Source: Escherichia coli
Lineage (GTDB): Bacteria; Pseudomonadota; Gammaproteobacteria; Enterobacterales; Enterobacteriaceae
Assembly: GCF_009931435.1 (NCBI RefSeq)
Contig: NZ_CP043414.1
DNA length: 64,000 nt
Strand: one strand, 5' to 3'
Both the position numbers and the translations under genes were made by a program. Positions 45,306 through 64,000 of the stretch are shown here, piece by piece. Below the pieces are notes generated by a model. The model saw only the letters and a program-made list of their open reading frames with translations, was not told the DNA's origin and did not search any database. Numbering within the stretch: position 1 is the stretch's first letter; each line of letters begins with the position of its first letter.

Positions 45306-45443
45306 TTAACCCCTTGTAATTCATTGCCATAATTGATTTAATTCACAAATAAAACTATAACATGGTGAAATTAATAAAAAAACACAGATGATGGGGCTAG
45401 AATTTACACACCACTTACCCTAAAGCTTTATGACTGGTGGGTT

Positions 45444-46040
45444 TTGGGAGTATCAAATCGGCTTGCATGGGGATGTCCTACAAAGGAACACCTTCTTCCA
45501 CACCTTCTTCCACACTTTCTGGAACATTTAGGTAACAACCATCTGGATATTGGTGTTGGAACTGGGTTTTACCTTACTCACGTACCTGAGAGTAGTCTGA
45601 TATCTTTAATGGATTTGAACGAAGCTAGCCTGAACGCGGCATCTACAAGGGCTGGGGAATCAAAAATTAAACATAAAATTAGCCATGATGTTTTTGAACC
45701 TTATCCCGCGGCGTTACATGGTCAATTTGATTCCATTTCCATGTCTTACCTTCTTCACTGCCTGCCTGGAAATATATCTACAAAAAGCTGTGTAATACGC
45801 AATGCGGCGCAGGCCTTAACTGACGATGGAACTCTATACGGAGCCACAATTCTTGGCGATGGAGTTGTGCACAATAGCTTCGGTCAAAAACTGATGCGCA
45901 TTTACAATCAGAAAGGCATCTTTTCAAACACAAAAGATTCCGAAGAAGGCTTAACACATATACTCTCAGAGCATTTCGAGAATGTTAAAACCAAGGTTCA
46001 AGGTACTGTAGTAATGTTTTCCGCTTCAGGAAAAAAATAG
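45444..46040 (+). CDS. ybcY: Putative class I SAM-dependent methyltransferase (YbcY-like), possibly N-terminally truncated or a pseudogene
   Basis: 198-aa ORF with glycine-rich motif I (LDIGVGTGFY); the only in-frame start is a TTG, with no upstream ATG or GTG before the stop at 45375. Confidence 0.55.
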   Translation: MGVSNRLAWGCPTKEHLLPHLLPHFLEHLGNNHLDIGVGTGFYLTHVPESSLISLMDLNEASLNAASTRAGESKIKHKISHDVFEPYPAALHGQFDSISMSYLLHCLPGNISTKSCVIRNAAQALTDDGTLYGATILGDGVVHNSFGQKLMRIYNQKGIFSNTKDSEEGLTHILSEHFENVKTKVQGTVVMFSASGKK

Positions 46041-46094
46041 CATCCAACCGCAGCATGTTCTTGCTTAAGACGTGCTGCGGCATAATCCCAATGA

Positions 46095-46679
46095 TTACTC
46101 CCTGACAGGGTTCGTAGGCCACTCAATATCAGGTGCAGTTGATGTATCAACACGGTTCAGCAACACCCGATATTTTTTCCAGGCTTCCAGCAATGAGGTT
46201 TCTTCCTCCGTTGCGATTTCCAGATCTACAGCATCCTGAAGTGGCGCAATATGCTCACTGGCTACCTGCATCAGGCTGTTTTTTGTTTCTTCCGCCTCCC
46301 GAATCCGGAACAGTTTTTCTGCTTCTGCATCTTTCACCCAGGCTGTACCGTTCCACTTCTGAAACTCCCCTTCCGGCGATAACCAGGTAACATTTTCCGG
46401 TAACGGACCGAGTTCAGAAATAAATAACGCGTCCCCTGACGCTACGTCATAAACCGTTTTACCCCGATGATCTTCAACGAGATGCCACGATGACTCATCA
46501 CTGTTGAAAACAGCCACGAAGCCAGCTGGAATATCTGGCGGTGCAATGTCGGTACTGTTTGCTGGCAGACCTGTATGAGGCGGAATATATGCGTCACCTT
46601 CACCAATAAATTCATTAGTTCCGGCCAGCAGATTATAAATTGTTATGGTCCGTGGTTGTTCACTCATTCTGAATGCCAT
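46095..46679 (-). CDS. tfa: Tail fibre assembly protein Tfa
   Basis: 194-aa [56 protein letters not shown]...; start overlaps the stf stop. Confidence 0.9.
46119..46260. repeat. Direct repeat copy B of the tfa 3'-end segment (inside the intact tfa)
   Basis: Partner of 45059-45200. Confidence 0.7.
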
Positions 46680-49600
46680 TATGCAAGCCTCACAATATAG
46701 TTAAATGCGATGTTTTTGACGGTGTTTTCCGCGTTACCAGCAGCGTTAACGGTGATGGTGTGTCCATGTGAGCCAATCGCAACCGAGTGCGTATGAGCAC
46801 CAATACCGACAGTATGTGCGTGTGCACCTGCGCTTGCTGCAGTGCCGGACAGTGAGTGGGTATGAGCACCATCTGATGATGTCTTCCCTGCATTACGAGT
46901 CTGGCCACTACCGCTTGTTGTGCTCATAATCCCCGCGCTTGGATTTGAAATCGCGGTATAACCATTAGGGAAAATGCTCGTGTTCGTGCCACCAAATGCA
47001 CCGGAACTCTTGTGTTGGTGCGCACCGGCACTATTTGCGGTCCCGCTAATACTATGGGTATGCGCCCCGGTGTTATTCGTGGATTTGGTTCCGTAATCAA
47101 ACGACGATGTGGTTTTCGTCCCCAAATCCGTACTGGATGCGCTGGCGCTGTGGGTATGCGATTTAATGCCGTCCTGTTCCTGAGACAATACGGCCCGACC
47201 ACTGGCAGGTTTGCCCTTAATCGTCCAGCCACGCATATCAGGGATCACGCCTGACGGATAAGCCGCTGCAAGTTTCGGGTAGGCAGATTTGTCAAAAGCC
47301 TGCCCCTGCATCAGGGCATAGCCAGACGGAACGGTATCTGATGGCCACGGGATTGGTGCGCCGACTGGGTAGCTTTCTGGTGGAAGATTTTTCGAGGTAT
47401 AAACTTCTGCCCAGTCTTCCTCAAAACCATAGCCATCTCTTGAGGAACGGTAGAACAGACCTCCATTTCTGTAATGCGCCTTCATCTGCAGGGTCCGGCA
47501 ACTTCCGACTCCGGTATAGAAGTTAACCAGAATATAGCTGTCGCCAGAGCGGGTGACATTGTAAGCGCCTGATTCGGCATTCCAGGGAACGCCACCATCC
47601 GCATCGGCATATGTATCCGTTGCCCTTCTGGCAAAAGCAGCCACATGCGCGGCGGTTAAAGTAATATCTTTGGAACCATCAAACTCAACACCAGAAACCA
47701 GTCTTGGCGTTTGCAGCTTTGTTGCTGTTAATGCATTACCGTTCAGACTTGCGGACAGTTTGGTTCCAATAATCAGTTCGCCGGTTGCGTTATCAATAGC
47801 AAACGGTCTTAATGTATTCCAGCCACCATAAACATCACCTTGATTGGTAAGCAGCAGGTAAGTTTTAGCGCCATCATTACGCCATAATGCACCATACTCC
47901 CCACCTATCATTCGAATCTGATTACCACCACGCGCTACAATTTCGTCTGTGGCAAAAAGTTTTTTGCACGACAAGTTATCGTTAACGATTAACGAATGAG
48001 ACTCATAAAAACCACGCCCACTCTTAAAATCAAGGATAACGTCCGCCGCGATACATTCAGTCGCCGGATTTGTTGCCCCAAACTTATAGGTCGTATCATT
48101 AACAACGAGATCAGCACCAGGTGCGGATATTGACAGGCCATCTTCGATAAACGCAAAAACAGGGAAAGCAGCGCCATCAACATAGAACACAGAGCGCAAA
48201 TCATCGCCCTTATTACTCATCATTATTGAGTGGATGGCTCGTTCATTGTTTTGATATTGCCAGAACATTCCATAAGCATAACGCCCCCTGTCAGTCCAGC
48301 CACCAGGCATAACAAATCCGTTAAACTCGCAGTTATTCATCGGATCGCCTGCGGTTCGCGTTGCCGTGGTGATAATGACCCTTGATGCCAGTTCGCTTAC
48401 TGAGCCAGCAGAACGCATAACAACAACAGGGTAATATTTTCCAGATGTTGCACCTGCAGGAGCGTTAACCCGCACATAACGCATACCACGCTTATCAGCA
48501 AAGTCTGTTTTACTGACCGCGTTAATGTTGTTCAGGAAGCGTCCCTTATCGGGTATATCAGCGCCGTTCTGGTCTTTCTGCAGACGTTTCTCTGCATTGT
48601 CATAGGCTGATTTTACTGCCTTTGGCGTTGCCGCCAGCGTTTCAGACGTACTGTTGGTCGCACTGCTGAGCTGTACTACCCCCTTTTTCGTCGTGCTCGC
48701 ATCCTCAAGCGCCACGGCGGATGCAATATCCTCTGCCCGTTTTGCCGCTGTCTCGGCGCGCGTTGCCGCGGATTCCGCCGTACTTTTGCTCTGAGCTGCC
48801 GCCGTCGCACTGCCAGCTGCCTCTGTCGCCTTCGTGGATGCCGTCGTGGCGCTGCTCTTCGCTGCTGACGCTTGTCTGGTCGCCTCATCTTTTGAAGCAG
48901 ACGCAGATGATGCCGATGACGCCGCCGAACTGGCTGACGATGCGGCAGCCGTTTTTGAGGATTCTGCGCTGGTTTCCGACGCTTTCGCGTTCGTTTCGGA
49001 TGTCTTCGCTGCGGAAGCAGAACTCGCTGCTGCGCTGGCCTGTTCAGTGGCTTCGCCAGCCTTCGTTGTGGCTGTTGAAGCAGACGATGCGGCACTTTCT
49101 GCCGACTTTCCGGCAGCGGTGGCACTGGCTGAGGCCTGCCCGGCACTTGTTGACGCGGCGCTGGCAGATGATGCAGCCGCTGTTTTTGAGTCTGCTGCTG
49201 CGGAGGCACTCTGTTCCGCTGCCGTCTCAGAAGACTTAGCGTTCGTCTCGGACGTTTTTGCCGCCTTCGCGGAATTTCCTGCCGCCGTTGCCGAGGAAGC
49301 TGCGCTACTGGCGCTCGAGGATGCGTTCGTTTCTGATGATTTCGCTGCCTCTTTTGAGGCCGCCGCATCCCTGGCTGAGGTGGCAGCTTCTGACGCTTTC
49401 CTGGTCGCGGTGGATGCAGAAGTGGCTGCTGATTGTTGTGACGCTGCGGCATTCGTTTCTGACGTTTTCGCCGCACCGGCACTGGTGGCCGCCGCGCTTT
49501 TTGAGGACTCTGCAGCGGCAGCACTTTTTTCCGCTTCAGTGGCCTTTGCTGATGCCGTTCCTGCGCTGGAAGATGCTGACTGAGCCGACGACGCGGCCTG

Positions 49601-50086
49601 TCCGGCTGACGTGCTGGCTGCGCGTGCTGAGCCTGCAGCATCAGTCGCATGGGTTGCCGCCTCACTGGCAGATGTGCTGGCATCGCCGGCTGACTTCTTC
49701 GCGGCTGCCGTGTTTTGTGCCACCGCGGACGCGTTACGCGCCACCTCTTCCACCATCAGTTCAAAACGGCGCAGAGCCTCCGGACGGGCATCATCCTCCG
49801 TCATGGCACCGAGAAAATCATTCAGCGTACCGGGTCGGGAATCTTCATACACGGTGATGGTCCCGGCATGTGACGGCGGGAATCCTTCCACCAACAGAAT
49901 AACGCTGTACTGACCGTACTCAACGTCCATGCTGTAACGCCCGGCTTCATCCGGATTTTCTGAGGCCAGCGTGTTCACCACCACCGCGGTGCTGTTACGT
50001 TTTGCTTTCAGCTGGATTGTGCAGTTCTGTACCGGTTTTCCTGTGCCGTCTTTCAGTACACCTGAAATCTTTACTGCCATATTCAC
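46679..50086 (-). CDS. stf: Side tail fibre protein Stf (lambda Stf / StfR-like)
   Basis: 1135-aa [40 protein letters not shown]...; long Ala/Ser/Thr-rich repetitive shaft; C-terminal His-rich GAHTHS-type motifs and ...[13 protein letters not shown]. Confidence 0.9.
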
Positions 50087-50096
50087 CCCACAAAAA

Positions 50097-50118
50097 AGCC
50101 CGCCTGAACAGGCGGGCT
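50097..50118 (-). terminator. Intrinsic terminator hairpin between lom and stf
   Basis: agcccgcct / aggcgggct stem with a 4-nt loop, preceded on the plus strand by aaaaaa (a U-tract on the minus-strand transcript). Confidence 0.6.
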
Positions 50119-50144
50119 GTCATAACACTGTGTTACCTGGCTAA

Positions 50145-50744
50145 TCAGAACTTATAACCGACACCCACGATGAAACCGTCAGTGCGCCAGTCGCCACTGC
50201 CGGAGCCTTCATAAGCAATATCAATGGCCACGGATTCGGTCGGGTTAAACTACACGCCAGCTCCCCACGCCAGAGACGTGTTGCTGTGGCGACCGTCATC
50301 ACTTCCGGTCAGCACGTCGTGCGTTTTCCCCTTGTTGTCAGTTACGCGGAGATAATCCCCGGAGAAAGTCGACACACGGCTGTAAGCCATACCCGCCATC
50401 GCATACGCGCTGAACCATTCATTCACGCGCACAGACGGCCCCACCATCACGCTGAACCAGCGGTTACGCACGGAATCTTCATGCCAGCGGGTATTGCTGT
50501 AACGGGTAAGCTGGCGATTCTTGTCTCCTGCATAGCTGAATGACGTCACCAGCCCCAGTGTGTCCGTAAACTCATAACGGTATTTCACGTTAATCCCGTT
50601 AAGATCATCGCTGCCGGGAACGTTCGTCGAGGCATGAAGATACCCCGCGCTCAGCGTGGACTGATGTTCAGATGCCCATGCAGGCGCACCGGATACGGTC
50701 AGACAAATGGCTGCGGACAAAATGGCGGCATAAAGTTTACGCAT
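50145..50744 (-). pseudogene. lom: Lom-like outer membrane protein gene interrupted by an in-frame amber codon
   Basis: 164-aa ORF MRKLYAAILSAAICLTVSGAPAWASEHQSTLSAGY... stops at TAG (50252-50250); the same frame continues FNPTESVAIDIAYEGSGSGDWRTDGFIVGVGYKF to a TGA at 50147-50145, with Q expected at the TAG position. Confidence 0.75.
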
Positions 50745-50813
50745 AATTACCTCTCGCTTTTCTGCAATAAAAAAGGCACCATTTCTGGTGCCCTTATATG
50801 GGTTATAACAATT

Positions 50814-53800
50814 TCAACGAATACTGATGCCGGAAGCGGCTTTTTTGGTCACAATCACCGTACAGTCGGTGATATTACCTGCCCACTGATTGCCTTTATG
50901 GAAAACCTTAAACTCCAGAGTGACGCTTCCCCTGCCACTCGGCATATCAATAACCGCACTGTAGCTACCGGGAATGGCCCCTTTAGTTTCTCTGGATGCG
51001 ATTAATACACCGTTTTTGCGAACTTCAAAACCATAACCCGTGTATCTTGTACCTCCCGGGTTATTACCACTTCCCGGATCGCTATACGCTATTCCGTTAA
51101 AGATAATGGGCGGAATAATGATTTGACGGTCAAAGTTATGATCATCGCTGATGGTGACTGTAACCGTCCCGTTTGGTGTTTCCGTGTTACCCCACGTACC
51201 AGCCTGTTTCGGAAATGATTTGGATACAGCTTTAACGAAGTCACCTCTGACCTGAGTCGCCTCCAGCATGCCCTTAATTGTACAGTTTTCATTTACCGTG
51301 ACATTGTTGAGCGTCCCGGCGTTCGCATTCACACTGCCACTGATATCCGCATTTTTAGCGGTCAGCTTTCCGTCTGATGTCAGGGAAAATACCGGTGGAT
51401 TTCCACCGCTGGTAATGGTGGGGGCCGTCAGGCGCTTCAGGAACACGTCGTTCATGAATATCTGGTTGCCCTGCGCCACAAACATCGGCGTTTCATTCCC
51501 GTTTGCCGGGTCAATAAACGCGATACGATTGGCGGCAACCAGAAACTGGCTCAGCTTGCCTTCCTCCGTGTCCTCCATGCTGAGGCCAATACCCGCGACA
51601 TAATGTTTGCCGTCTTTGGTCTGCTCAATTTTGACGCCCCACATCGCATTCCATTTATCGTTAGCGTCCTTCCACTCTTTCGAAAACTCATCCAGTCTGC
51701 TGGCGTTATCCTCCGTCAGATCAACTTTTTCCAGCAGCTCTTTACCGAGATGGGATTCGGTTATCTTGCCTTTGAAAAAATCCAGGTAACCTTCCGCATC
51801 ATCGCTCGCCCGACCAACAGCCTCCACGAATGCCGATTTGCCAACGGTGTTCACACTGCGAACGTAAAAATAATAATCATGGCCCGGTTTGATATTGATA
51901 CTGGCGGCTATCCAGTACAGTGCCGTACCAAGATAACGCGCGCTGGTTTCAACCTGCCTGATATCCGCAATCCGTTTTTCCGAGAACCAGAACTCAAACT
52001 GTACCGTCGGGTCATAAACCGCAAGATGCGGCGTGGCGGTTATCTGAAAATAGCCCGGCGTCAGCTCAATCCGCGACGGCGCTGCCGGTGCGGCAATCCG
52101 GAACGATACCGACGCCGGATCGCCCTGCTGTCCCCACGCATTTACCGCCCGGACTGTCAGCGTGTACCGTCCCAGCGCCAGTTGCGTGAAGCGGTATGTG
52201 GTTTCCGTCGTCCGGGCCGTGCTGACCAGCCGCTCACTGCCGTCATCCGCTGTTACGGTCAGACGGAGCAGGAAGCTCACGCCCTTCACCACCTTCGGCG
52301 TGTCCCAGCGCGCCAGCACCTGATATTCCCCGCTGTCTGCGGTGACTTCGGCAGTCAGGTGCTGCACCGCTGGCGGCGTGACACCATTCACCGTGCCGCT
52401 CTGGTCGCCGTCAAAGTGCGCCCCGTTATCCACGATGGCTTCTTTTTCCGGTACATGCTGCACGGCGGTGATGGCATACGTGCCGTCGTCGTTCTCACGG
52501 ATACTCACGCAGCGGAACAGGCGCTGGCGCAGCGTCGGCAGCTTCAGCCCCCACACGCTGTATTCAGCAACGCCGTCAGGAACACGGCTCACTTTCACCT
52601 TCACGCCGTCGGTGACGGACTGAACCTCCACGCTGACCGGATTGCCACTTCCGTCAACCAGGCTTATCAGCGTGGTACCGGAGGATGGCAGCGTGATTTC
52701 ACGGTCGAGCGTCAGCGTCCGGGTCTGGCTGTTTACCGCCAGCACGCGCCCGCCGGTGCTGATACCGGCATAGTCATCATCACAGATTTCAATGACATCG
52801 CCCGGCACATGGCGAAGCCCTTCTGCGCCCACGCTGAAGTCCACGGTCTGCGTTTCCAGCAGTTCTGTTTTAATCAGCCATAGCCCGGCGCGATGTGCCT
52901 GCCCCCGGCTGGTACAGCCAAAGGCATCCATCTTCGTGACGTTACGACCGTAACGGGCAATGGCCTGCGTGTCCTCCACAAGCTCTGTCGCCGTCTCCCA
53001 GCCGTTATTCGGGTCAATCCAGTTCACCTCAACGGCATTATGGCGGTCCTTCAGGGCGCTGAAGCTGTAGCGGAACGGCGCGCCATCATCCGGCATCACC
53101 ACATTACTGCGGTTATAGGTCCACACCTTATCCGATGGTCGGTCCTGCACGAACGTCAGCGTCTGCCCGTTCCATACCGGCATACAGCGCATCGCCGAGC
53201 AGAAATCACTGAGCACATCCCACGCCTTGCGCTGTGTGGTCAGGTACGCATTACAGGTGATGCGCGGCTCCGTGCCGCCAAAGCCGTCCGGCACTGACTG
53301 GTCGCAGTACTGGCCGATGACATACAGCGCCCATTTATCCACATCCGCCGCACCAAGACGTTTCCCCATGCCGTAGCGCGGATGGGTCAGCATATCCCAC
53401 AGACACCAGGCCATGTTGTTGCTGTATGCCGGTTTAAACGTTCCGTCCCAGATACCGCTGTATTGCCGCGTCTGCGGGTTATAGTTCGACGGCACCTGCA
53501 GAATGCGCCCGCGCAGATGATAATTACGGCTCACCTGCTGGCTGCCGAACTGCTCCGAATCCACCTGCACGCCGACCAGTGCCGTGTTCGGGTAGCCCTG
53601 TTTCACATCGATGATTTCGGTGTATGACGACCAGAGCGTTTTGTTCTGCAGCTGGTCTGTGGTGCTGTCCGGCGTCATCCTGCGCATCCGGATATTGAAC
53701 GGGCGCGGCGGCAGGTTACCCACCACCACCGAGGCCAGATACTGCGAGGTGGTTTTGCCCTTAATGGTGATGTCTTTTTCCGTCACCCAGCCACCATTAC

Positions 53801-54227
53801 GCTGGATCTGAACCAGCAGGCGGACTTCCGACGGATTCCTGTCCCCCTTTGAGGTGGTTTCCACCAGTGCCTGCACGCCGAAGGTAAAACGCAGTCGGTC
53901 AATGTTTGCCGACGTGATGGTCCGGGTGATCGGCGTGTCGTATTTCACTTCCGTACCCAGCACCGTCTCGGAGCCGGAGGATTCAAATCCCTCCGGCGGT
54001 GTCTGCTCCTGCTCACCGGCCCGGAACACCACCGTGACGCCGGAGATATTGGTATTCCCCTCACTGTCCAGCACTGGCGTACTGTTCAGCAGCACGCTTT
54101 TTAATCCATCCACCGGACCTTCAACCGGCCCTTCGCTGATGGCATCGATCACACTCAGCAACTGCGTGGACTTCAGGTTGTCCTTCGCTTCGCGCGGAGT
54201 ATGCCCCTTACTGCTGCCTTTACCCAT
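50814..54227 (-). CDS. J: Tail tip / host specificity protein J
   Basis: 1137-aa [57 protein letters not shown]..., lambda J-like over most of its length with a diverged C-terminus. Confidence 0.93.
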
Positions 54228-54286
54228 TCCTCACGCTCCATAAACGACAAAACCGCCCGGAGGCGGTTTCACATAAACGTTTTTCA

Positions 54287-54958
54287 TCAGCGACCAATCA
54301 CCACAACCTGACCACCATCCCCTTCGTCTGCCGTGCTGATCTCCTGAGAGACCACCCGCGACCCCACGCGCATTTCACCGTACAGAACCGGCAGAACATT
54401 GCCCTGGGCAACCATGTTATCCAGTGAGGAGAAATAGGTGTTCTGTTTGCCGTTATCCGTTGTCTGTGTACGGGGAGTTCTGGCTTTCGGTGCCAGCATC
54501 TGCGCCACACCACCGAGCACCATACTGGCACCGAGAGAAAACAGGATGCCGGTCATACCACCGGCCCCAATGGCTGCCCCCCATGCTGCAAGGGTGGCCC
54601 CGGCGGTAAAGAATGATCCGGCAATGGCGGCAGCCCCCAGGACAATCTGGAATACGCCACCTGACTTGGCCCCGGCGACTCTGGGAACAATATGAATCAC
54701 AGCGCCATCAGGTAGAGTCTCATGTAACTGCGCCGTTAATCCGGACGTGCTGACATCCTGCCCGGCAATCCGTACCTGATACCAGCCGTCGCTCAGTTTC
54801 TGACGAAACGCCGGGAGCTGTGTGGCCAGCGCCCGAATGGCTTCAGCCCCCGTTTTCACACGAAGGTCGATGCGGCGGCCAAATCGTTGCAAATCCCCGT
54901 AAAGGCAGATGCGCGCCATGCCCGGTGACGCCAGAGGGAGTGTGTGCGTCGCTGCCAT
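54287..54958 (-). CDS. I: Tail tip assembly protein I
   Basis: 223-aa ORF MAATHTLPLASPGMARICLYGDLQRFGRRIDLRV... (lambda gpI-like). Confidence 0.9.
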   Translation of the reverse strand: MAATHTLPLASPGMARICLYGDLQRFGRRIDLRVKTGAEAIRALATQLPAFRQKLSDGWYQVRIAGQDVSTSGLTAQLHETLPDGAVIHIVPRVAGAKSGGVFQIVLGAAAIAGSFFTAGATLAAWGAAIGAGGMTGILFSLGASMVLGGVAQMLAPKARTPRTQTTDNGKQNTYFSSLDNMVAQGNVLPVLYGEMRVGSRVVSQEISTADEGDGGQVVVIGR

Positions 54959-55599
54959 TTGTCGGTATACCTCTCTCGTTTGCTCAGTTGTTCAGGAATA
55001 TGGTGCAGCAGCTCGCCATCACCACAGTAAATGGCGGCATGATTCGGCACCGATGAACCAAAACAGCACAGCAGCACATCGCCCGGTTGTGCTGATGACA
55101 ACGGCACCTGATACAGCCCTGTGGCCTCCAGATTATCCAGATAGAGATTCTGACCGTGACGCCACCAGTCATCCTCGCGATGAAAATCCGGCATCTCAAT
55201 CCCCGCCAGATGATAAGCATCCCGGAATAGCGTGTAACAGTCCGTCACCCCGTGTTCAAAGCGCCGCCCGGTGAGATGCGGCACACAGCGGAACTTATGA
55301 ATCGTCCCCCGGCAGACCAGCCACCACGGCAAATCACTCTGCACCTGCAGCCGCCGGTCAGCCTCACTCAGCCAGGGCAGACCACCGGGGTGGCTGTGGA
55401 CCAGCGCCACAATCTCACCCTGCATCTCTGCCCGCAGCCAGTCCTCCGGCGACATCCGGAAATACTCCTCCGGCTCACCGGAGATATTCACGCAGGGAAA
55501 ATATCTTTCCCCTTCCGGCGTTCTCACCACGAAGCCGCACGACTCCGCTGGCGCACATCGCCGGGCGTGCGCCAGAATCGCTGATTCTGTCTCTGTCAT
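54856..55599 (-). CDS. K: Tail tip assembly protein K (JAMM/MPN plus NlpC/P60 domains); 3' boundary relative to lambda K uncertain
   Basis: 247-aa ORF MTETESAILAHARRCAPAESCGFVV... with HSHP motif; starts 5 nt after the L stop and overlaps I by 103 nt. Confidence 0.8.
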   Translation of the reverse strand: MTETESAILAHARRCAPAESCGFVVRTPEGERYFPCVNISGEPEEYFRMSPEDWLRAEMQGEIVALVHSHPGGLPWLSEADRRLQVQSDLPWWLVCRGTIHKFRCVPHLTGRRFEHGVTDCYTLFRDAYHLAGIEMPDFHREDDWWRHGQNLYLDNLEATGLYQVPLSSAQPGDVLLCCFGSSVPNHAAIYCGDGELLHHIPEQLSKRERYTDKWQRRTHSLWRHRAWRASAFTGICNDLAAASTFV

Positions 55600-55604
55600 G
55601 GGAT

Positions 55605-56303
55605 TTACTGCGAAAGTTTGTTAATGGAAAGGAAGCCGCCAAAGTTGCCGACATTATTGCGGAACTTACAGCCACTCAGGCATTTGCTGCATTTATCCTT
55701 CGTGATATCGGACGTCGGCTGATCATATTCATCCGCGACAGCCGGACCTTGATAACCGCACTCATCACCGCGATAGGTCCAGGTGCAGGTATTAGCCAGC
55801 ATGATGCGCCCCGGAAAAACGGCACCATCCGTTTCCGTCGGTGTGGACAACACAAAGGAGGCACTGACCGCACTCAGTTCGCTGCACTGCTCGATGCGCC
55901 AGCGGCTGATCACCTCCTGCTCCGGATCGGCGTCGCTGTTTCCGTTGACGAAGTTCACCGCATCCAGAAAACGGGCGTAAACCTTACGCCTGACCACCGT
56001 TCCGCCGACCAGACTCTGCAGGTCTTCCGCCATCCCCGTGACCATGCCGTGCAGGTTAGAAACCGTCAGTATCGGACGGGCAGCACTGCCCTTGCCGTTC
56101 AGTTCAAATCCCGTCCCCTGAATGGGGTATGCCTGATACTGCCGCCCCTGCCAGGTAACCGGCTCACCTTTTTCGTTTTGCTCATTACAGAAAAAATAAC
56201 GTTCTCCACCGACCTCTGTCAGGTCGATTTCCCAGAGCACCACGCTGGCCGACTGCTCCGCACGGGTGCATTCATTCAGTGTTTCCTGCCGGATATCCTG
56301 CAT
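55605..56303 (-). CDS. L: Tail tip assembly protein L
   Basis: 232-aa ORF MQDIRQETLNECTRAEQSASVVLWEIDLTEVGGERYFFCNEQ... Confidence 0.9.
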   Translation of the reverse strand: MQDIRQETLNECTRAEQSASVVLWEIDLTEVGGERYFFCNEQNEKGEPVTWQGRQYQAYPIQGTGFELNGKGSAARPILTVSNLHGMVTGMAEDLQSLVGGTVVRRKVYARFLDAVNFVNGNSDADPEQEVISRWRIEQCSELSAVSASFVLSTPTETDGAVFPGRIMLANTCTWTYRGDECGYQGPAVADEYDQPTSDITKDKCSKCLSGCKFRNNVGNFGGFLSINKLSQ

Positions 56304-56632
56304 CAGTTCACCACCTGTTCAAACTCTGCGCTGAACTCAACACGCAGCATACTGACCCGCGACGACCATTTTGCGCAGGTCACCTTTATCTGCCGCCACT
56401 CATAAGGCGGCGTCCACAGAAAGGATTTCCAGCCCCCGTGCTCTTCCAGAAACGACTCCAGTACCGTGGCCTCCTCACGGGGGACAGAAAGCGTCACGCT
56501 GTACGTTTTCAGGTTGGCATTCAGCCCGGCAGGCGCTCGCTGGGAATAGCCATCACCAAAGCGCACCTTTCTTACAGAAGGGACCGAAGCCACATCCATA
56601 CCGGGTTTCACTTTCCAGCGGAAGGTCTTCAT
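56303..56632 (-). CDS. M: Tail tip assembly protein M
   Basis: 109-aa ORF MKTFRWKVKPGMDVASVPSVRKVRFGDGYSQRAPAG... Confidence 0.9.
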   Translation of the reverse strand: MKTFRWKVKPGMDVASVPSVRKVRFGDGYSQRAPAGLNANLKTYSVTLSVPREEATVLESFLEEHGGWKSFLWTPPYEWRQIKVTCAKWSSRVSMLRVEFSAEFEQVVN

Positions 56633-59208
56633 CGTCCACCTCCGGAGAACAGGCCACCATCACGCATCTGTGTCTGAATTTCATCACGGGCACCCTTGCG
56701 GGCCATGTCATACACTGCTTTCATCATCTGTGGACCTGGCAGACCATTCGTACCGTCGTTCTGAATCACCACGTTGTTGTTCTGCTCAAACCTGATACCC
56801 TCTGAACGCCGCATTTGCGCCGGACTTCCGGTGCCACCGACATAACCGCCGGTGGCATAGCCGCGCATCAGCCGGTAGAGATTTCCCACGCCAATCCGGC
56901 TGGTTGCCTCCTTCGTGAAGACAAATTCACCACGGTGAACAATCCCCGCTGGCTCATATTTGCCGCCGGTTCCCGTAAATCCTCCGGTTGCAAAATGGAA
57001 TTTCGCCGCAGCGGCCTGAATGGCTGTGCCGCCTGACGCGGATGCGCCGCCACCAACAGCCCCGCCAATGGCGCTGCCGATACTCCCGACAATCCCCACC
57101 ATTGCCTGCTTAAGCAGAATTTCTGTCATCATGGACAGCACGGAGCGGGTGAAGCTGCGCCAGTTCTGCTCACTGCCGGTCAGCATCGCCGCCATATTCT
57201 GTGCAATACCATCAAAGGTCTGCGTGGCTGCACTTTTTACCTGCGACATACTGTCCGTGGCGCTCTCTTCCCACTCACTCCAGCCGGACTTCAGGCCTGC
57301 CATCCAGCTCCCGCGAAGCTGGTCTTCAGCCGCCCAGGTCTTTTTCTGCTCTGACATGACGTTATTCAGCGCCAGCGGATTATCGCCATACTGTTCCTTC
57401 AGGCGCTGTTCCGTGGCTTCCCGTTCTGCCTGCCGGTCAGTCAGCCCCCGGCTTTTCGCATCAATGGCGGCCCGTTTTGCCCGTTGCTGCTGTGCGAATT
57501 TATCCGCCTGCTGCGCCAGCGCGTTCAGGCGCTCCTGATACGTAACCTTGTCGCCAAGTGCAGCCAGCTGGCGTTTGTACTCCATCGTCTCATCTTTATG
57601 CGCCAGCAGGGATTTCTCCTGTGCGGACAGCTGGCGACGTTGTGCCGCCTCCTCCAGTACCGCGAACTGACTTTCTGCCTTCCACAAATCCCGGCGCTGC
57701 TGGCTGATTTTCTCATTTGCTCCGGCATGCTTCTCCAGCGTCCGGAGTTCAGCCTGAAGCGTCAGCAGGGCAGCATGAGCACTGTCTTCCTGACGATCGC
57801 CCGCAGACACCTTCACGCCGGACTGTTTCGGCTTTTTCAGCGTCGCTTCATAATCCTTTTTCGCCGCCGCCATCAGCGTGTTGTAATCCGCCTGCAGGAT
57901 TTTCCCGTCTTTCAGTGCCTTATTCAGTTCTTCCTGACGGGCGGTATATTTCTCCAGCGGCGTCTGCAGGCGTTCGTAAGCCTTCTGCGCCTCTTCGGTA
58001 TATTTCAGCCGTGATGCCTCAGACTCGACCCAGTCCTTTGCTGCCATCTCTCTGGCCTTTTCAAGATCGGCCTGCAACGTGGCGGCTGAAAGCCCAAGTT
58101 GCGCATTCGCTCTGTCCTCCCATGCTCCCCGGAGATTGGCAAGAAATGCTGAGGTTTTACCGCGCCGGTGGCTCCGGCTCTGATACCACTGCCATTTTTT
58201 GTCCGCCTCATCAAAAGCCTTTTCTGCTTTCTCCAGCATTCCCTGGGCAGTGTCCGGGCGACCAATATCCAGCACCGAATCCCACATGGATTTGAATGCC
58301 CGTGCTGTCCTGTCTGCCCAGGTCTCCAGCGTGCCCATGTTCTCTTTCAGGCGGCGGGTCTGGTCATCAAACCCTTTCGTTGCGGCCTCGTTCGCCGCCT
58401 GCAATGCCCCGGCTTCATCGCCGGAACGCTGCAACTGAGCAACATACGCAATCTGCTCCGCCGTCACGTTATGGAACTGGCGTGCCATCGCCGTCAGCCC
58501 CGACGTCGGGTCTGTGGTCAGCTTCCCGAAGGCTTCAGCGACCTTGTCCACCTCCACGCCGGATGCAGAGGAGAAACGCGCCACACTCTGGCTGATGGAC
58601 GCAATCTGAGCCTCACCGCTTACCCCCGCCTTAACCAGTGCGCTGAGTGACTCGCTGGTCTGGTTAAACGTCAGCCCTGCCGCCTGCCCGGCTCTGGACA
58701 GGACCAGCATGCGATCTGCCGTCAGACCCGACTGATTGCCGGAAAGGACCAGCGTTTTGTTGAAATCGGACAGGGTTGAGTTGCCCTGATACCAGGCATA
58801 CGCCAGCGCACCGGTCGCCACCGCCAGCGAGGTGGCCCCGACCATCGGCAGGGTGATCGCACCGGCAAGCCCCCTGAACATGGGGATCATCCCGCCGAAG
58901 GAGTCCTTAACCTGACCACCCTGTTGCAGCAGGATCAGCCACGGACTTTGCCCGCCTGCAAACTGCGTGGCCACGTCGGTGAACTGTGCAGGCAGCATAC
59001 GCATGGCGGCTTTATACTGCCCGACGGAAATCCCCGCTTTCTGTGCAGCCAGCGCCTGTCGGCTCAGCGACTGTTCAACGACTGCCGCTGTTTTTTTCGC
59101 ATCAGTTTCCGTACCGGAAAAATGACGCCTGACTCTGGCCATCTGCTCGTCAAATCTGGCCGCATCCAGACTTAAATCAACGACCAGATCGCCTACCGGT
59201 TCAGCCAT
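56629..59208 (-). CDS. H: Tail tape measure protein H
   Basis: 859-aa ORF MAEPVGDLVVDLSLDAARFDEQMARVRRHFSGTETDAKK... Confidence 0.93.
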   Translation of the reverse strand: MAEPVGDLVVDLSLDAARFDEQMARVRRHFSGTETDAKKTAAVVEQSLSRQALAAQKAGISVGQYKAAMRMLPAQFTDVATQFAGGQSPWLILLQQGGQVKDSFGGMIPMFRGLAGAITLPMVGATSLAVATGALAYAWYQGNSTLSDFNKTLVLSGNQSGLTADRMLVLSRAGQAAGLTFNQTSESLSALVKAGVSGEAQIASISQSVARFSSASGVEVDKVAEAFGKLTTDPTSGLTAMARQFHNVTAEQIAYVAQLQRSGDEAGALQAANEAATKGFDDQTRRLKENMGTLETWADRTARAFKSMWDSVLDIGRPDTAQGMLEKAEKAFDEADKKWQWYQSRSHRRGKTSAFLANLRGAWEDRANAQLGLSAATLQADLEKAREMAAKDWVESEASRLKYTEEAQKAYERLQTPLEKYTARQEELNKALKDGKILQADYNTLMAAAKKDYEATLKKPKQSGVKVSAGDRQEDSAHAALLTLQAELRTLEKHAGANEKISQQRRDLWKAESQFAVLEEAAQRRQLSAQEKSLLAHKDETMEYKRQLAALGDKVTYQERLNALAQQADKFAQQQRAKRAAIDAKSRGLTDRQAEREATEQRLKEQYGDNPLALNNVMSEQKKTWAAEDQLRGSWMAGLKSGWSEWEESATDSMSQVKSAATQTFDGIAQNMAAMLTGSEQNWRSFTRSVLSMMTEILLKQAMVGIVGSIGSAIGGAVGGGASASGGTAIQAAAAKFHFATGGFTGTGGKYEPAGIVHRGEFVFTKEATSRIGVGNLYRLMRGYATGGYVGGTGSPAQMRRSEGIRFEQNNNVVIQNDGTNGLPGPQMMKAVYDMARKGARDEIQTQMRDGGLFSGGGR

Positions 59209-59641
59209 ACCGGACTCCTCCTGCGATCCCTTCTGATACTGTCATCAGCATTACGTCATCCTCCGTCATGTCCGCCACATCCGGGGAAGCGGGGATAACT
59301 TCATTCCCGTCCGGGCCAAAGCGGACACCTCCGGCAAGCCCTGCCGCTTTCTGCATCAGCACATCATCTTCAGGCTCTTCGTCAGCCTCGCGCCGGTTAA
59401 GCAGACTGAAATCCAGCGGATGCATATCCGGATCGCTGAAAAACAGGCTGAGCACGGTGTACGTCAGCCCGGAAAAGTGCATATCCAGCAGAACATCATG
59501 AAAATAATGGGTACTGTAAAAGCGGTGCCAGTCGGCATACTCCGTGGATGACATCCCGGCAAGCATGGCACGCCAGTCGGGTCGCCCCATCTCACGCGCC
59601 AGTTTCAGGGCAAAACTCAGCTCACCGTCGAACACTTTCCC
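59201..59641 (-). CDS. T: Tail assembly chaperone T segment, expressed as a G-T fusion by -1 programmed ribosomal frameshift
   Basis: ORF in the -1 frame relative to G, beginning at the slippery site; no independent ribosome-binding site or ATG is expected. Confidence 0.8.
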   Translation of the reverse strand, partial: GKVFDGELSFALKLAREMGRPDWRAMLAGMSSTEYADWHRFYSTHYFHDVLLDMHFSGLTYTVLSLFFSDPDMHPLDFSLLNRREADEEPEDDVLMQKAAGLAGGVRFGPDGNEVIPASPDVADMTEDDVMLMTVSEGIAGGVRYG

Positions 59642-60039
59642 GCAGAAACAGGCTCTGCAGGCCCGGCGTCCTCTGTCTGTTCAGGGGTATTATTCACAAC
59701 AAACTCATACATTCCGGACAGCCGGTACACCACGTTTTCAGCATGAGAAATTGCCTCTGTGGGCCAGGTGGTAAGCACTTCCTGTTCAATCTGTTTAACG
59801 GCTTCATTCATGGACGGCATCTGCGTCTTCTTCGGATGGTTATGCCACAGGGACATCGCCACCACACAAGCACCGGTTCTGATGACGTCTTCCACAGTAA
59901 CCTGCCGGTTGCTGTCTGACTCCGCCTGTTCTGCCTGCCGTTTCATCAGGGCGAGATGCTCAATACGCTGCAGGGCTGACAGTTCAGAAAGCGTGACGGT
60001 CACGCCGTTATGTTCAAATGATTCGGTTTTCAGGAACAT
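59617..60039 (-). CDS. G: Tail assembly chaperone G
   Basis: 140-aa ORF MFLKTESFEHNGVTVTLSELSALQRIEHLALMKRQAEQ... ending ...SAGKCSTVS. Confidence 0.9.
   Translation of the reverse strand: MFLKTESFEHNGVTVTLSELSALQRIEHLALMKRQAEQAESDSNRQVTVEDVIRTGACVVAMSLWHNHPKKTQMPSMNEAVKQIEQEVLTTWPTEAISHAENVVYRLSGMYEFVVNNTPEQTEDAGPAEPVSAGKCSTVS
59635..59641 (-). other. Slippery heptamer G GGA AAG for the G/GT -1 frameshift
   Basis: Minus-strand reading GCG GGA AAG in the G frame, with the T frame reading GGG AAA GTG; identical in form to the canonical lambda G-T slip site. Confidence 0.8.
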
Positions 60040-60054
60040 CGCTGACTCTCCGGA

Positions 60055-60795
60055 TTAACTGGCGGTGACGGTGATTTCTGCAACCGCAGCAAACTCACCA
60101 TTACCGGATACGACCGGAATGTTGACCTTACCTGCAGCAACGCCATTCACGGTGATGGTCATACCACTGACCGACACGGTGGCTTTTGTTTTATCCGCTG
60201 ACACCGCACGGAAGCTCTTGTCGGTTGCGCCTTCCGGCTGGAATGCCACGGTCAGCGTGGTGCTCTGCCCTTTCACCACCGAGGTGCTGGCAGGCGTCAC
60301 AGTCATGCCGGTTGTCGCCGTCACCGTGCTGCGATCTTCTGCCATCGACGGACGGCCCACATTGGTGACCTTCACCGTGCGGGTGATCACTTCCTTCGCC
60401 GTCACCGCCTTACCGATACTGCTGACCCAGCCGCGGAACACATCGACCGTGCCGTTCGGGAAGCGGATTTTATAGGCTCGGGTATCCCCTTCATTAAACC
60501 ACGCCAGCAGCGCCTGCTGCCCCTGCTCTCCGGGCATCCACGCCAGCGTGAAGCTGGTATCTCCGGCAGATTTCTGCCCCTGTCCGGTCGCGGTCCAGTC
60601 CGCATCTTCATCATCGAGATAACTGTCGTCATAGGACTCAGCGGTCAGTTCGCCGGGCGTCAGGTCTTTAACTTTAGCCAGACGCGACCAGTCAACGTCT
60701 GAAAGCGGGTTCGCATAAGGGTCACCGTTCCCCTTATAAACCCACAGTGTGGTCCCGGCCCCTTTCACCGGTGCCAGAGGATTTGGTGTTGGCAT
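60055..60795 (-). CDS. V: Major tail tube protein V
   Basis: 246-aa product from the ATG at 60795 ([34 protein letters not shown]...); C-terminal Ig-like region. Confidence 0.92.
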
Positions 60796-60802
60796 ATCGT
60801 CC

Positions 60803-61198
60803 TCACATTTCATAGGTAATGACATAAGTCAGATCGGCTGAACTCCACAGGCCCGCATCATCGTCGCGCCGGTAGTCATAGCCACTGGCCACCATACTGG
60901 TGATCAAATCTGACAGTGCCGGGATATCGCTCATCACCGGATAAATCCGGGACTCCATCCACGAATCCAGCTCTGAATCCGGCACCTGAGCAGGCAGGAA
61001 AACTTCAATATGCAGCTCCGCCTGCCAGGTATCGCTGTCCAGCTCTTCGCCCGTGTATTCAGCGCCGGTGAGATAAACGGCAACTGCCGGAAAATCCGCC
61101 TCATCAAAAACAGCGGGGCGACCATCAAAAAACGTCGCCCCGGTGTCATGCTTCTCCAGTGCATCCAGTACGGCTGCACGGAGTTCAGTATGTTTCAT
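60803..61198 (-). CDS. U: Tail terminator protein U
   Basis: 131-aa [39 protein letters not shown]... Confidence 0.9.
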
Positions 61199-61773
61199 CG
61201 CTTTATTACCATCCTCAGTTGATGCTGCAGCGCATAGCCCAGCTCTTTCGGAAGACGCTCACGCCGTATCCGCTCAATATTCTGTTTAAACGCCGTGGTC
61301 AGCGGCACCGCCATCGGAATTTTCACCACATCAATGGGGTAACGATTTTTCCCGGCCACACGCTGCATAACATGCCAGCGGCCATTTTTCAGTTGCTGAA
61401 TAAACGCGCCGGGAATACGACGGTTTCCCACCACAAGCACGCTGCCGCCACCTTTCAGGGCTGAACGCTGCCCCTTTTTACGACGCCTGCGTCGGGACAG
61501 GACAATCCGCGCGTTACCCAGCTTTATTACGGGCAAATCCCCCCGGTTAACCTTGATTCTGGCCTGCGGATTTTTGACCGTGGCCCTTTTCAGCCTGGCC
61601 CTTTCCTTTACCAGTTTCCGGCGTACCTTTGTCTCACGGGCAACCTGTGACGCCGACTGCGATATCGCGGATGAAGCAACGCGGTTAATGGCCATTGCGG
61701 CGGCACCGGGCACCGCCGTTCTGCTGATACGGCTGAGGTTTTCAACGGCCTGCTCAAGACCTTTTATGGCCAT
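61195..61773 (-). CDS. Z: Tail completion protein Z
   Basis: 192-aa ORF MAIKGLEQAVENLSRISRTAVPGAAAMAINRVASS... Confidence 0.9.
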   Translation of the reverse strand: MAIKGLEQAVENLSRISRTAVPGAAAMAINRVASSAISQSASQVARETKVRRKLVKERARLKRATVKNPQARIKVNRGDLPVIKLGNARIVLSRRRRRKKGQRSALKGGGSVLVVGNRRIPGAFIQQLKNGRWHVMQRVAGKNRYPIDVVKIPMAVPLTTAFKQNIERIRRERLPKELGYALQHQLRMVIKR

Positions 61774-61784
61774 ACATCCCCCTT

Positions 61785-62138
61785 TCAGCGGCGACGGTTA
61801 ACGGCAGGCGGTACGCCCCGCCCAAGCCAGAGATGACAGCTTCCGCCATCATCCGGCGAAATCCGGTCTATCCAGAAGTTTTCCTCACCGATGGTCAGCG
61901 TGTCGCCGCGCCGCAGCTGCCGCACATCATCAGTCCGGACAAACAGGAACGGGCTGGAGCCTTCAACGCGCACGCCCTGTCCGGCATAGCTGATATTTTC
62001 AGGATCATCAAAAACACCACGTATCACAGCACCGGACTGCTCACCGGATGTCATGGTGGCTGACGTTCCCATGTACCCGCGTATCGTTTCATCGGCGCGG
62101 GCAATGGCAGCATCGAACAGGTTATCGAAATCAGCCAC
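61785..62138 (-). CDS. FII: Head-tail joining protein FII
   Basis: 117-aa ORF MADFDNLFDAAIARADETIRGYMGTSATMTSGEQ... Confidence 0.9.
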   Translation of the reverse strand: MADFDNLFDAAIARADETIRGYMGTSATMTSGEQSGAVIRGVFDDPENISYAGQGVRVEGSSPFLFVRTDDVRQLRRGDTLTIGEENFWIDRISPDDGGSCHLWLGRGVPPAVNRRR

Positions 62139-62149
62139 AGCGCCTCCCG

Positions 62150-62545
62150 TTATTGCATTCTGGCCAGGCCGCGCTCTGTCATTTCAGCTGCCACACCGGC
62201 AGAGACACGGAACGCCGTTCCCGGCAGCACAAATGCCACAGCCTCATCCCGCGTGGCGTGAAGTGCATCAGTATGCAGCGTCACCAGTGCCACAACCGTG
62301 ACCAGATCAGCCGTATCAGTCACGGTATCCGGCTGCGCTGATACAACCTCATTTTCATGTCCGGTCAGCGCATTTTCCGGGCTGACAGATGTGTCCTGAC
62401 CAGCAGCGTCATCCGTGTCATCAAGCTCCTCTTCCAGCTCTGCCACACGGAGTGCCAGTTCTTCTTTCGTCCCCGTCAGGCTGACATCACGGTTCAGTTG
62501 CTCACCCAGCACCTGAAGACGGGCAATCAGTTCATCTTTCGTCAT
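62150..62545 (-). CDS. FI: DNA packaging / head assembly protein FI
   Basis: Start taken at the internal ATG at 62545 (MTKDELIARLQVLGEQLNRDVSLTGTKEELALRVAEL...), giving 131 aa; the longer ORF start at 62584 was rejected. Confidence 0.85.
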   Translation of the reverse strand: MTKDELIARLQVLGEQLNRDVSLTGTKEELALRVAELEEELDDTDDAAGQDTSVSPENALTGHENEVVSAQPDTVTDTADLVTVVALVTLHTDALHATRDEAVAFVLPGTAFRVSAGVAAEMTERGLARMQ

Positions 62546-62586
62546 GGACTCCTCCACAGAGAGAAAATGGCCCCGAAGGGCCATGA

Positions 62587-63612
62587 TTACGCCAGTTGTA
62601 CGGACACGAACGCATCAGGATCAGCCAGCAGCATCAGCGGTGCTGACTGAATCATGGTGAACTCACGCGCCGGATCGCCGGTGGTCACCCAGTTTTTCGG
62701 GTAGCGGGCAGAGGCGTTAATACCTTCGCGCTGTGCGTCCGCATCCTGAATGCAGCCATAGGTGCGCAGACCGCGTGCCTGAGTGTTCCCCAGCACCATC
62801 GTGTTGTCCGGCAGGAAGTTCTTTTTGACGTCGTTTTCCACGTACTGTCCGGAATACACGACGATCGCCGTATCGCCATACATCCCCTTATAGGACACCG
62901 CTTCGCCCAGATCTTTTACCGCTGTCTCCAGCTCGGAATGAGAGCCGCGACGGGTATCCAGCTTCTCCTTGACGGCTTTGAAGGAACGGAACAGCGCCCA
63001 GCCTTTCGGATCAAACACGATGATATTCACCACACCGCTGGCGTTCAGCGCGTAGGCTTCGATATCGTCGGTCGGGTCATACGTGGACTTGTCACGCTTG
63101 CTCCACTCCGTACCGCCGGACTGCGTGATGTTGTTCGCCACACTGCGGCCCATATCCACTTCAACCGGATCGAAGGCTTCACCGGTCATGGTATATTTGC
63201 CCTTAAGCACGGCAGAAACGGCCTGCATCTCTTCGACCTGAGCAATGGCCAGCTCTTCGTCTCGCATGTTCTGCAGAATGATGCGACGGCGGCGGTAAGC
63301 CGGGTCCGCCAGATTCTGTGGATCTTCATCCGGCAGGCGACGCAGGGTCATCTGCGGATTCACCTCATGCTTCGGCTTGACATATCCCGGTGTAAATTCA
63401 GAGGTGGAGCCGCCACGGGAGCGGATAACCTCACCGGAAACAATCGGCGAAACGTACAGCGCCATGTTTACCAGTCCCGGAATTTGTGAGAGATAGACTT
63501 TCTCCGTGGTGAAGGGATAGCTCTCACGGAAAAAGAGACGCAGAAACAGCGGATCAAACTTAAATTTCTTCTCATTTGCCGCCAGCAGCTGGGCGGTTGT
63601 GTACATCGACAT
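62587..63612 (-). CDS. E: Major capsid protein E
   Basis: 341-aa product from the ATG at 63612 (MSMYTTAQLLAANEKKFKFDPLFLRLFFRESYPFTTEKVYL...). Confidence 0.93.
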   Translation of the reverse strand: MSMYTTAQLLAANEKKFKFDPLFLRLFFRESYPFTTEKVYLSQIPGLVNMALYVSPIVSGEVIRSRGGSTSEFTPGYVKPKHEVNPQMTLRRLPDEDPQNLADPAYRRRRIILQNMRDEELAIAQVEEMQAVSAVLKGKYTMTGEAFDPVEVDMGRSVANNITQSGGTEWSKRDKSTYDPTDDIEAYALNASGVVNIIVFDPKGWALFRSFKAVKEKLDTRRGSHSELETAVKDLGEAVSYKGMYGDTAIVVYSGQYVENDVKKNFLPDNTMVLGNTQARGLRTYGCIQDADAQREGINASARYPKNWVTTGDPAREFTMIQSAPLMLLADPDAFVSVQLA

Positions 63613-63667
63613 AAAAAAATCCCGTAAAAAAAGCCGCACAGGCGGCCTTTAGTGATGAAGGGTAAGG

Positions 63668-64000
63668 TTAAACGATGCTGATTGCCGTTCCGGCAAACGC
63701 GGTCCGTTTTTTCGTCTCGTCGCTGGCAGCCTCCGGCCAGAGCACATCCTCATAACGGAACGTGCCGGACTTGTAGAACGTCAGCGTGGTGCTGGTCTGG
63801 TCAGCAGCAACCGCCAGAATGCCAACGGCAGCACCGTCGGTGGTGCCATCCCACACAACCAGCTTACGGGTGGAGGTGTCCAGCATCAGCGGGGTCATTG
63901 CAGGCGCTTTCGCACTCAATCCGCCGGGCGCGGTTGCCGTATGTGCCGGGTCACTGTTGCCCAGCGGCTGGTAATGGGTAAAGGTTTCTTTGCTCGTCAT
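63668..64000 (-). CDS. D: Head decoration protein D
   Basis: 110-aa [55 protein letters not shown]...; the ATG is the last three bases of the window. Confidence 0.92.

Follow-up and report, generated by a model that had tools for sequence, protein, structure and literature searches.

Lambda Lom (NP_040601.1; PDB 9wso) is the founder of the Pfam Ail/Lom family (PF06316) and is encoded between J and the side-tail-fibre gene, a J-lom-stf layout that is found in phages lambda, 434 and Perceval. Related in fold are OmpX (1QJ8/1QJ9) and Yersinia Ail (3QRA), eight-stranded β-barrel proteins of adhesion and serum resistance, whose genes are chromosomal. The gene lom is non-essential for plaque formation by lambda (PMC10695390), and the roles proposed for its product are accessory ones, namely adhesion to epithelial cells and, when the protein is over-expressed, protection against lambda-vir (PMC12366544). 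Bacterial outer-membrane proteins engage the BAM machinery through a β-signal that lies within their final strand and has the consensus zeta-x-G-x-x-aromatic-x-aromatic (PMC10945584). A close described relative of the gene that we analyze here encodes WP_001230375.1, a common 199-aa Ail/Lom protein of E. coli prophages that occurs in Perceval, CB9615 and H9Ecoli.

The DNA under study is a stretch of 64,000 nucleotides, to which we refer as the window, and it carries a gene of the same family in the same arrangement as lambda, 434 and Perceval. J, lom and stf all lie on the minus strand and lom is bracketed by two terminator-like hairpins, the layout of a lom "moron" locus. The features of this locus are listed below, with the basis for each given in parentheses where it is other than the coordinates themselves.

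46679..50080, minus strand: Stf, side tail fibre, 1133 aa from the ATG at 50080, intact; downstream neighbour of lom (open reading frame list)
50097..50118, minus strand: terminator-like GC-rich hairpin with a T-run, just after lom and before stf (homologous terminator annotated in phage 434)
50145..50744, minus strand: lom pseudogene from the ATG to the original TGA, 199 codons, with an internal TAG as codon 165
50145..50147, minus strand: original stop codon of lom, TGA (sequence)
50148..50249, minus strand: orphaned in-frame 3' segment of lom, codons 166-199 (translation and strands of the structural model)
50250..50252, minus strand: premature amber codon TAG, codon 165, ancestrally CAG = Gln (comparison with relatives)
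50253..50744, minus strand: remaining lom open reading frame, codons 1-164, encoding the signal peptide and β1-β6 only
50673..50744, minus strand: probable Sec signal peptide, codons 1-24, MRKLYAAILSAAICLTVSGAPAWA, with cleavage before SEHQ (inspection only)
50750..50755, minus strand: Shine-Dalgarno-like GAGAGG, intact, 5 nt upstream of the lom ATG (sequence)
50772..50795, minus strand: terminator-like hairpin between J and lom (homologous site is an annotated terminator in phage 434)
50814..54227, minus strand: J, tail tip and host-specificity protein, 1137 aa, intact; upstream neighbour of lom (open reading frame list)

Read on the minus strand, the frame consists of 164 sense codons (MRKLYAAI...SLAWGAGV) followed by a TAG, a further 34 sense codons (FNPTESVAIDIAYEGSGSGDWRTDGFIVGVGYKF) and a TGA, for a count of 164 + 1 + 34 = 199 codons. 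The initial annotation, which gave no strand, had described a 164-aa frame ending at TAG after SLAWGAGV and continuing for 34 codons to a TGA, and both this reading and its coordinates are confirmed. The plus strand reads CTA at 50250-50252, and the mutated base is the A at 50252, ancestrally a G. The ATG of lom is intact, and the 57 nt upstream of it are identical between the window and phage 434, in which a ribosome_binding_site is annotated just upstream of the lom start. By inspection, the N-terminus of the protein has a basic n-region (MRK), a hydrophobic core and an A-W-A motif before SEHQ; a structural model of the protein places a helix at residues 2-18, and the alignment with mature OmpX begins at residue 29.

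To describe the protein that the gene would have encoded, we considered a restored sequence of 199 aa in which Gln is put back at codon 165. The match of the restored protein to Pfam Ail_Lom (PF06316) runs the whole length of the profile, from 1 to 199 of 199 positions (E = 1.6e-118), while the open reading frame as encoded spans positions 1-164 only. Against the PDB, the restored protein scores 5e-48 with lambda Lom (9wso_C) and about 1e-17 with OmpX and Ail. An AlphaFold model of it (15 homologues, mean pLDDT 76) shows a signal-peptide helix followed by eight β-strands, with β1-β6 at residues 29-35, 50-58, 63-81, 86-106, 111-135 and 141-166, β7 at 172-181 and β8 at 190-198, and the best fold matches of this model in the PDB are Yersinia Ail (3qra, 3qrc) and E. 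coli OmpX (1qj9). The assignment to the Lom/Ail/OmpX family that had been made from the sequence is upheld by the full-length Pfam match, by the match to lambda Lom and by these fold matches.

The likeness to the described proteins extends beyond the point of interruption. The C-terminal 30 residues of lambda Lom (DIAYEGSGSGDWRTDGFIVGVGYKF) are identical to the window frame, and a Gln of lambda Lom is aligned with the window stop; the two sequences differ in that their overall identity is 45%, lambda Lom has 206 aa and the restored protein 199, loop L1 is shorter in the window gene, and the window gene is interrupted at codon 165. OmpX and Ail have the same fold and strand order, and they share with the window gene both a G-A-G-x-Q-F-N-P motif at the end of β6 and the C-terminal G-Y-x-F, but they have shorter extracellular loops and are only about 27-31% identical to it. 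Intact homologues have a C-terminus identical to what the 34 codons beyond the stop encode, and the restored protein covers all 199 Pfam positions, which shows that the frame downstream of the stop is not a chance extension but the genuine C-terminus of the family, as had been expected. The product as encoded has β1-β6 only of the eight strands of the antiparallel OmpX/Ail-type barrel, and it ends in ...LAWGAGV where members of the family end in a C-terminal β-signal (...G-x-G-Y-x-F); the corresponding IVGVGYKF is present in the DNA at 50148-50171, downstream of the TAG. The gene is therefore a member of the Ail/Lom family by descent, and its encoded product fails the structural definition of that family.

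We determined the ancestral state of codon 165 from closely related prophages. The exact J protein of the window (1137 aa) and its exact Stf protein (1133 aa) are each encoded on 23 or more further contigs, and through an exact match to one or the other we recovered 19 sister loci in 13 assemblies, which include GCA_009898965.1, GCA_021354335.1 and one Logan run assembly. In all 19 loci lom is called at its full length of 199 aa; 18 of them differ from the window at lom nt 493 alone, and the remaining one (L015) has one extra difference. Nucleotide 493 is C (CAG, Gln) in every sister locus and T in the window, and it is also C in phages Perceval and 434 and in strains H9Ecoli and CB9615, so that the single CAG to TAG change that had been suggested to explain the interruption is borne out by all of these comparisons. 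The orphaned 34 codons are identical to those of the intact sisters.

Compared with the gene for WP_001230375.1, to which it is identical at 597 of 600 nt, the window allele has three differences, all of them G:C-to-A:T and all non-synonymous (A16T, D84N and Q165*). An intact allele with T16 and N84, carried by the sister prophages (L007-L026), is identical to the window at 599 of 600 nt, leaving Q165* as private to the window; the flanks and terminators of both intact alleles are the same as those in the window. A16T and D84N are lineage polymorphisms that are common to the sisters and are also found in four complete E. coli genomes, and the intact sister allele is carried by a complete chromosome, CP055971.1. 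Three changes of the same type might have been taken for mutagenesis or relaxed selection acting on lom, an idea that we reject because the sisters with intact lom and the four complete genomes also carry A16T and D84N, and only Q165* is private. A donor for gene conversion within the window is likewise rejected, since the window holds a single copy of lom.

The age of the change can be judged from the surrounding DNA. Over the interval of about 17.8 kb from 40667 to about 58400, the window differs from every covering sister assembly (13/13) at a single base, position 50252, and the nearest sisters show 2-5 mismatches to the window per 8-12 kb. This small divergence implies that the Q165* mutation arose after the members of a very tight clone had diverged, and the earlier description of the gene as a recent pseudogene agrees with the TAG being the sole private base in this interval. 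All other private bases of the window lie beyond the interval: 18 of them, judged against the five sister assemblies that cover the stretch, are clustered at 58497-60004 (1.5 kb), within the tape-measure and tail-assembly-chaperone genes, and this cluster looks like a recombination (mosaic) patch rather than scattered point mutation.

We consider it highly probable that the window carries a very recent, strain-private C-to-T nonsense mutation (CAG to TAG at codon 165) in an otherwise intact prophage lom, and that the result is a null allele. The stop stands where intact orthologues have a sense codon, and homology continues in frame past it, which is the pattern that identifies a pseudogene. 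It is an ordinary nonsense pseudogene, of a kind that is already known and already flagged by annotation pipelines. The locus should accordingly be annotated as a lom pseudogene (internal stop) and not as a 164-aa outer-membrane protein.

Conservation at the site was assessed with the best 120 representatives of 90%-identity clusters from a collection of 5.8 billion proteins, 99 of which span the position. All 99 have Gln after the W-G-A-G-V motif, as do lambda Lom and OmpX at the aligned position, in agreement with the initial annotation, which had taken Gln to be the family residue and had raised the case of homologues that end naturally at the position of the stop; no representative (0/99) ends there. 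Gln was also found at the aligned position in 14 of 15 diverse full-length members, lambda Lom included. Among the homologues 199 aa is the modal length, and the largest single cluster counts 24,859 members.

Database entries of 161-170 aa were considered as candidates for natural early ends and were rejected, because they are either "partial" (at contig ends) or frameshifted, and none ends in ...WGAGV. Thousands of Lom entries of this length (e.g. P0063, P0099, P0116, P0109 and P0053) are "partial" and end at contig breaks that fall in the highly conserved 3' end of lom, a segment that is repeated across several prophages per genome; the number of lom copies per genome has a median of 2 and reaches 14. 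Such contig-broken entries mimic C-terminal truncations and could mislead a survey based on length. One further homologue of 199 aa (P0059) reads GLACSLTRPNPWY instead of GAGVQFNPTESVA at residues about 162-174, a segment that represents the same DNA translated in another frame between two compensating frameshifts and that spans the position of the window's stop.

The TAG allele itself is rare. A 61-mer centred on the TAG has an exact match in 1 of 4,096 records (10,387 places) from complete E. coli genomes and in none of 154 phage records; we found no match to the allele among GTDB species-representative genomes or among JGI metagenome contigs, and a very large collection of assemblies has no record of the exact 164-aa product. 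Among complete E. coli genomes, only that of JNE120393 shares the Q165* TAG (NZ_AP027246.1, 1873363-1873962, corresponding to L005:5539-6138); in it the gene (QUF33_RS09785) has the same CAG to TAG change at codon 165 and is annotated by PGAP as a pseudogene with an "internal stop". The JNE120393 gene occupies a different prophage site, next to ydfK; its 3' 245 nt are identical to those of the window and its 19 nt differences all fall in the 5' 355 nt. The occurrence in JNE120393 could reflect either an independent recurrence, which is the more probable, or a recombined 3' segment. Of the 1,791 single-base changes that are possible in lom, only 58 introduce a stop codon, 15 of them by transition, so that for the change to recur once in more than 10,000 copies is unremarkable.

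That the strain truly has CAG, and that the T is an artefact of consensus base calling or assembly, is an improbable explanation, although the least improbable of the alternatives. A single-base difference that is the sole private base in about 17.8 kb relative to 13 sisters has the look of an isolated error, and the failure to find the exact 164-aa product on record points in the same direction. However, the nearest sisters differ by 2-5 other real substitutions per 8-12 kb, from which private true SNPs are to be expected at about such a density, and in a polished assembly such SNPs are far more numerous than substitution errors. Systematic substitution errors in long reads usually arise at Dam, Dcm and EcoKI motifs and at homopolymers; position 50252 is in none of these motifs and in no homopolymer, and we reject the idea of a methylation-motif hotspot or systematic error site at this base. 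The same TAG is moreover present in the independent complete genome of JNE120393, which implies that the allele is biologically viable.

The consequence of the nonsense mutation may be described as follows. One C-to-T transition on the coding strand (G-to-A on the plus strand at 50252) turns codon 165 from CAG (Gln) into TAG, and translation would end after residue 164. In the model, the stop falls where β6 reaches its periplasmic end (residue 165), and it removes the periplasmic turn T3, β7, loop L4, β8 and the C-terminal β-signal (...IVGVGYKF), all of which are encoded by the orphaned 3' segment. In place of the full-length mature Lom of about 19 kDa, the mature fragment of 140 residues would have six of the eight β-strands and would lack the final strand with the BAM β-signal (...G-V-G-Y-K-F); the last eight residues of Lom fit the G, Y and F positions of the β-signal consensus. 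A six-strand fragment of this kind would be unable to close the barrel or to enter the outer membrane and would probably be degraded in the periplasm. We treat the allele as null because a fragment without β7, β8 and the β-signal is not expected to assemble, and the function of Lom should thus be lost, a prediction drawn from the topology and from general knowledge of outer-membrane protein assembly. Since Lom is the product of an accessory "moron" gene that is dispensable for the growth of lambda, its loss would be tolerated by prophage and host, and the gene would stand at the first step of prophage gene decay.

Beyond correct annotation the importance of the change is very little. It offers a clean and datable example of the first step in the decay of an accessory gene within an otherwise intact prophage tail module. 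The naturally occurring lom-null lysogen and its isogenic lom-intact sisters also form a pair that is usable for studying the proposed roles of Lom in adhesion or in the exclusion of lambda-like phages.

The nonsense mutation might also be real and positively selected rather than neutral, which we regard as very improbable. Lom is surface-exposed and affects infection by lambda-vir when over-expressed (PMC12366544), and its loss might bring an advantage by allowing escape from a phage or host factor that binds it, or by reducing the load on the envelope. A stronger form of this argument, in which the loss of Lom is both adaptive and recurrent, holds that Q165* arose independently on two alleles at two sites, in the window and in JNE120393, as an escape from pressure directed at Lom; that pressure could come from a Lom-binding phage or host factor, or from a cost of Lom-mediated exclusion. 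The identical change on a clearly different lom allele (19 differences within the 5' 355 nt) at another prophage site speaks for selection in either form, and we consider the recurrent form marginally less probable than positive selection as such. Two occurrences among more than 10,000 copies are what random recurrence predicts, given only 15 transition-type stop changes in lom, and lom is kept intact in 13/13 sister assemblies. We found no other sign of selection, and the finding was picked for being a stop codon, which is an ascertainment bias.

Least probable of all is readthrough of the TAG to yield a full-length functional Lom, whether through programmed recoding or because the host or a prophage supplies an amber-suppressor tRNA. 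With a supE-type suppressor the codon would again be read as Gln, giving back the exact wild-type protein; tRNA-Gln could also read UAG naturally at a low level and yield traces of that protein; and the 34 downstream codons are perfectly intact. Against this, the recency of the mutation fully explains that intactness, we found no tRNA gene within the 64-kb window, and the TAG is not conserved as programmed recoding would be (0/13 sister assemblies, 1 of 10,387 places, 0/154 phage records). Natural isolates rarely carry amber suppressors, which are laboratory alleles, and the background here is that of a non-K-12 natural isolate, with a chromosome that reaches at most 98.3% identity to complete E. 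coli genomes and an intact J-lom-stf prophage at the site, which makes suppression unlikely.

The wider context of the recently inactivated lom was read from the annotations of matching genomes and sister contigs and from the sizes of open reading frames. Positions 1 to about 44500 of the window are E. coli chromosome, with the gene order enterobactin ent/fep cluster (assigned by open reading frame sizes only), cusCFBA-cusRS, nfrBA, envY, ompT and appY. Positions from about 45400 to 64000 form the tail end of a lambdoid prophage at a DLP12-type site, next to appY-ompT-envY. The 98.3% maximum refers to the chromosomal backbone at 20000-44000 (cus, nfrBA, envY, ompT, appY) among 5,426 complete RefSeq E. 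coli genomes; near-identical copies of the backbone (99.96% over 12 kb) are found in draft assemblies only. The host lineage is poorly represented among complete genomes.

Two other regions of the prophage deserve mention for annotation. The Ala/Ser/Thr-rich repetitive part of stf (48600-49700) contains long stop-free shadow open reading frames in other frames and on the opposite strand, such as those at 48676-49683 (minus strand, 335 aa) and 48834-49583 (plus strand, 249 aa), and these could be mistaken for genes. Beside the tail-fibre assembly gene, an open reading frame of 198 aa at 45444-46040 on the plus strand matches phrog_2132 (unknown function) with E = 1.7e-134. Its counterparts in the sister prophages have 143, 208 or 212 aa, so that the length of this frame seems to vary between strains. 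An identification of the frame as a Pin-type invertase is wrong, given the match to phrog_2132 and the matches of some sister counterparts to SAM-methyltransferase Pfam families.
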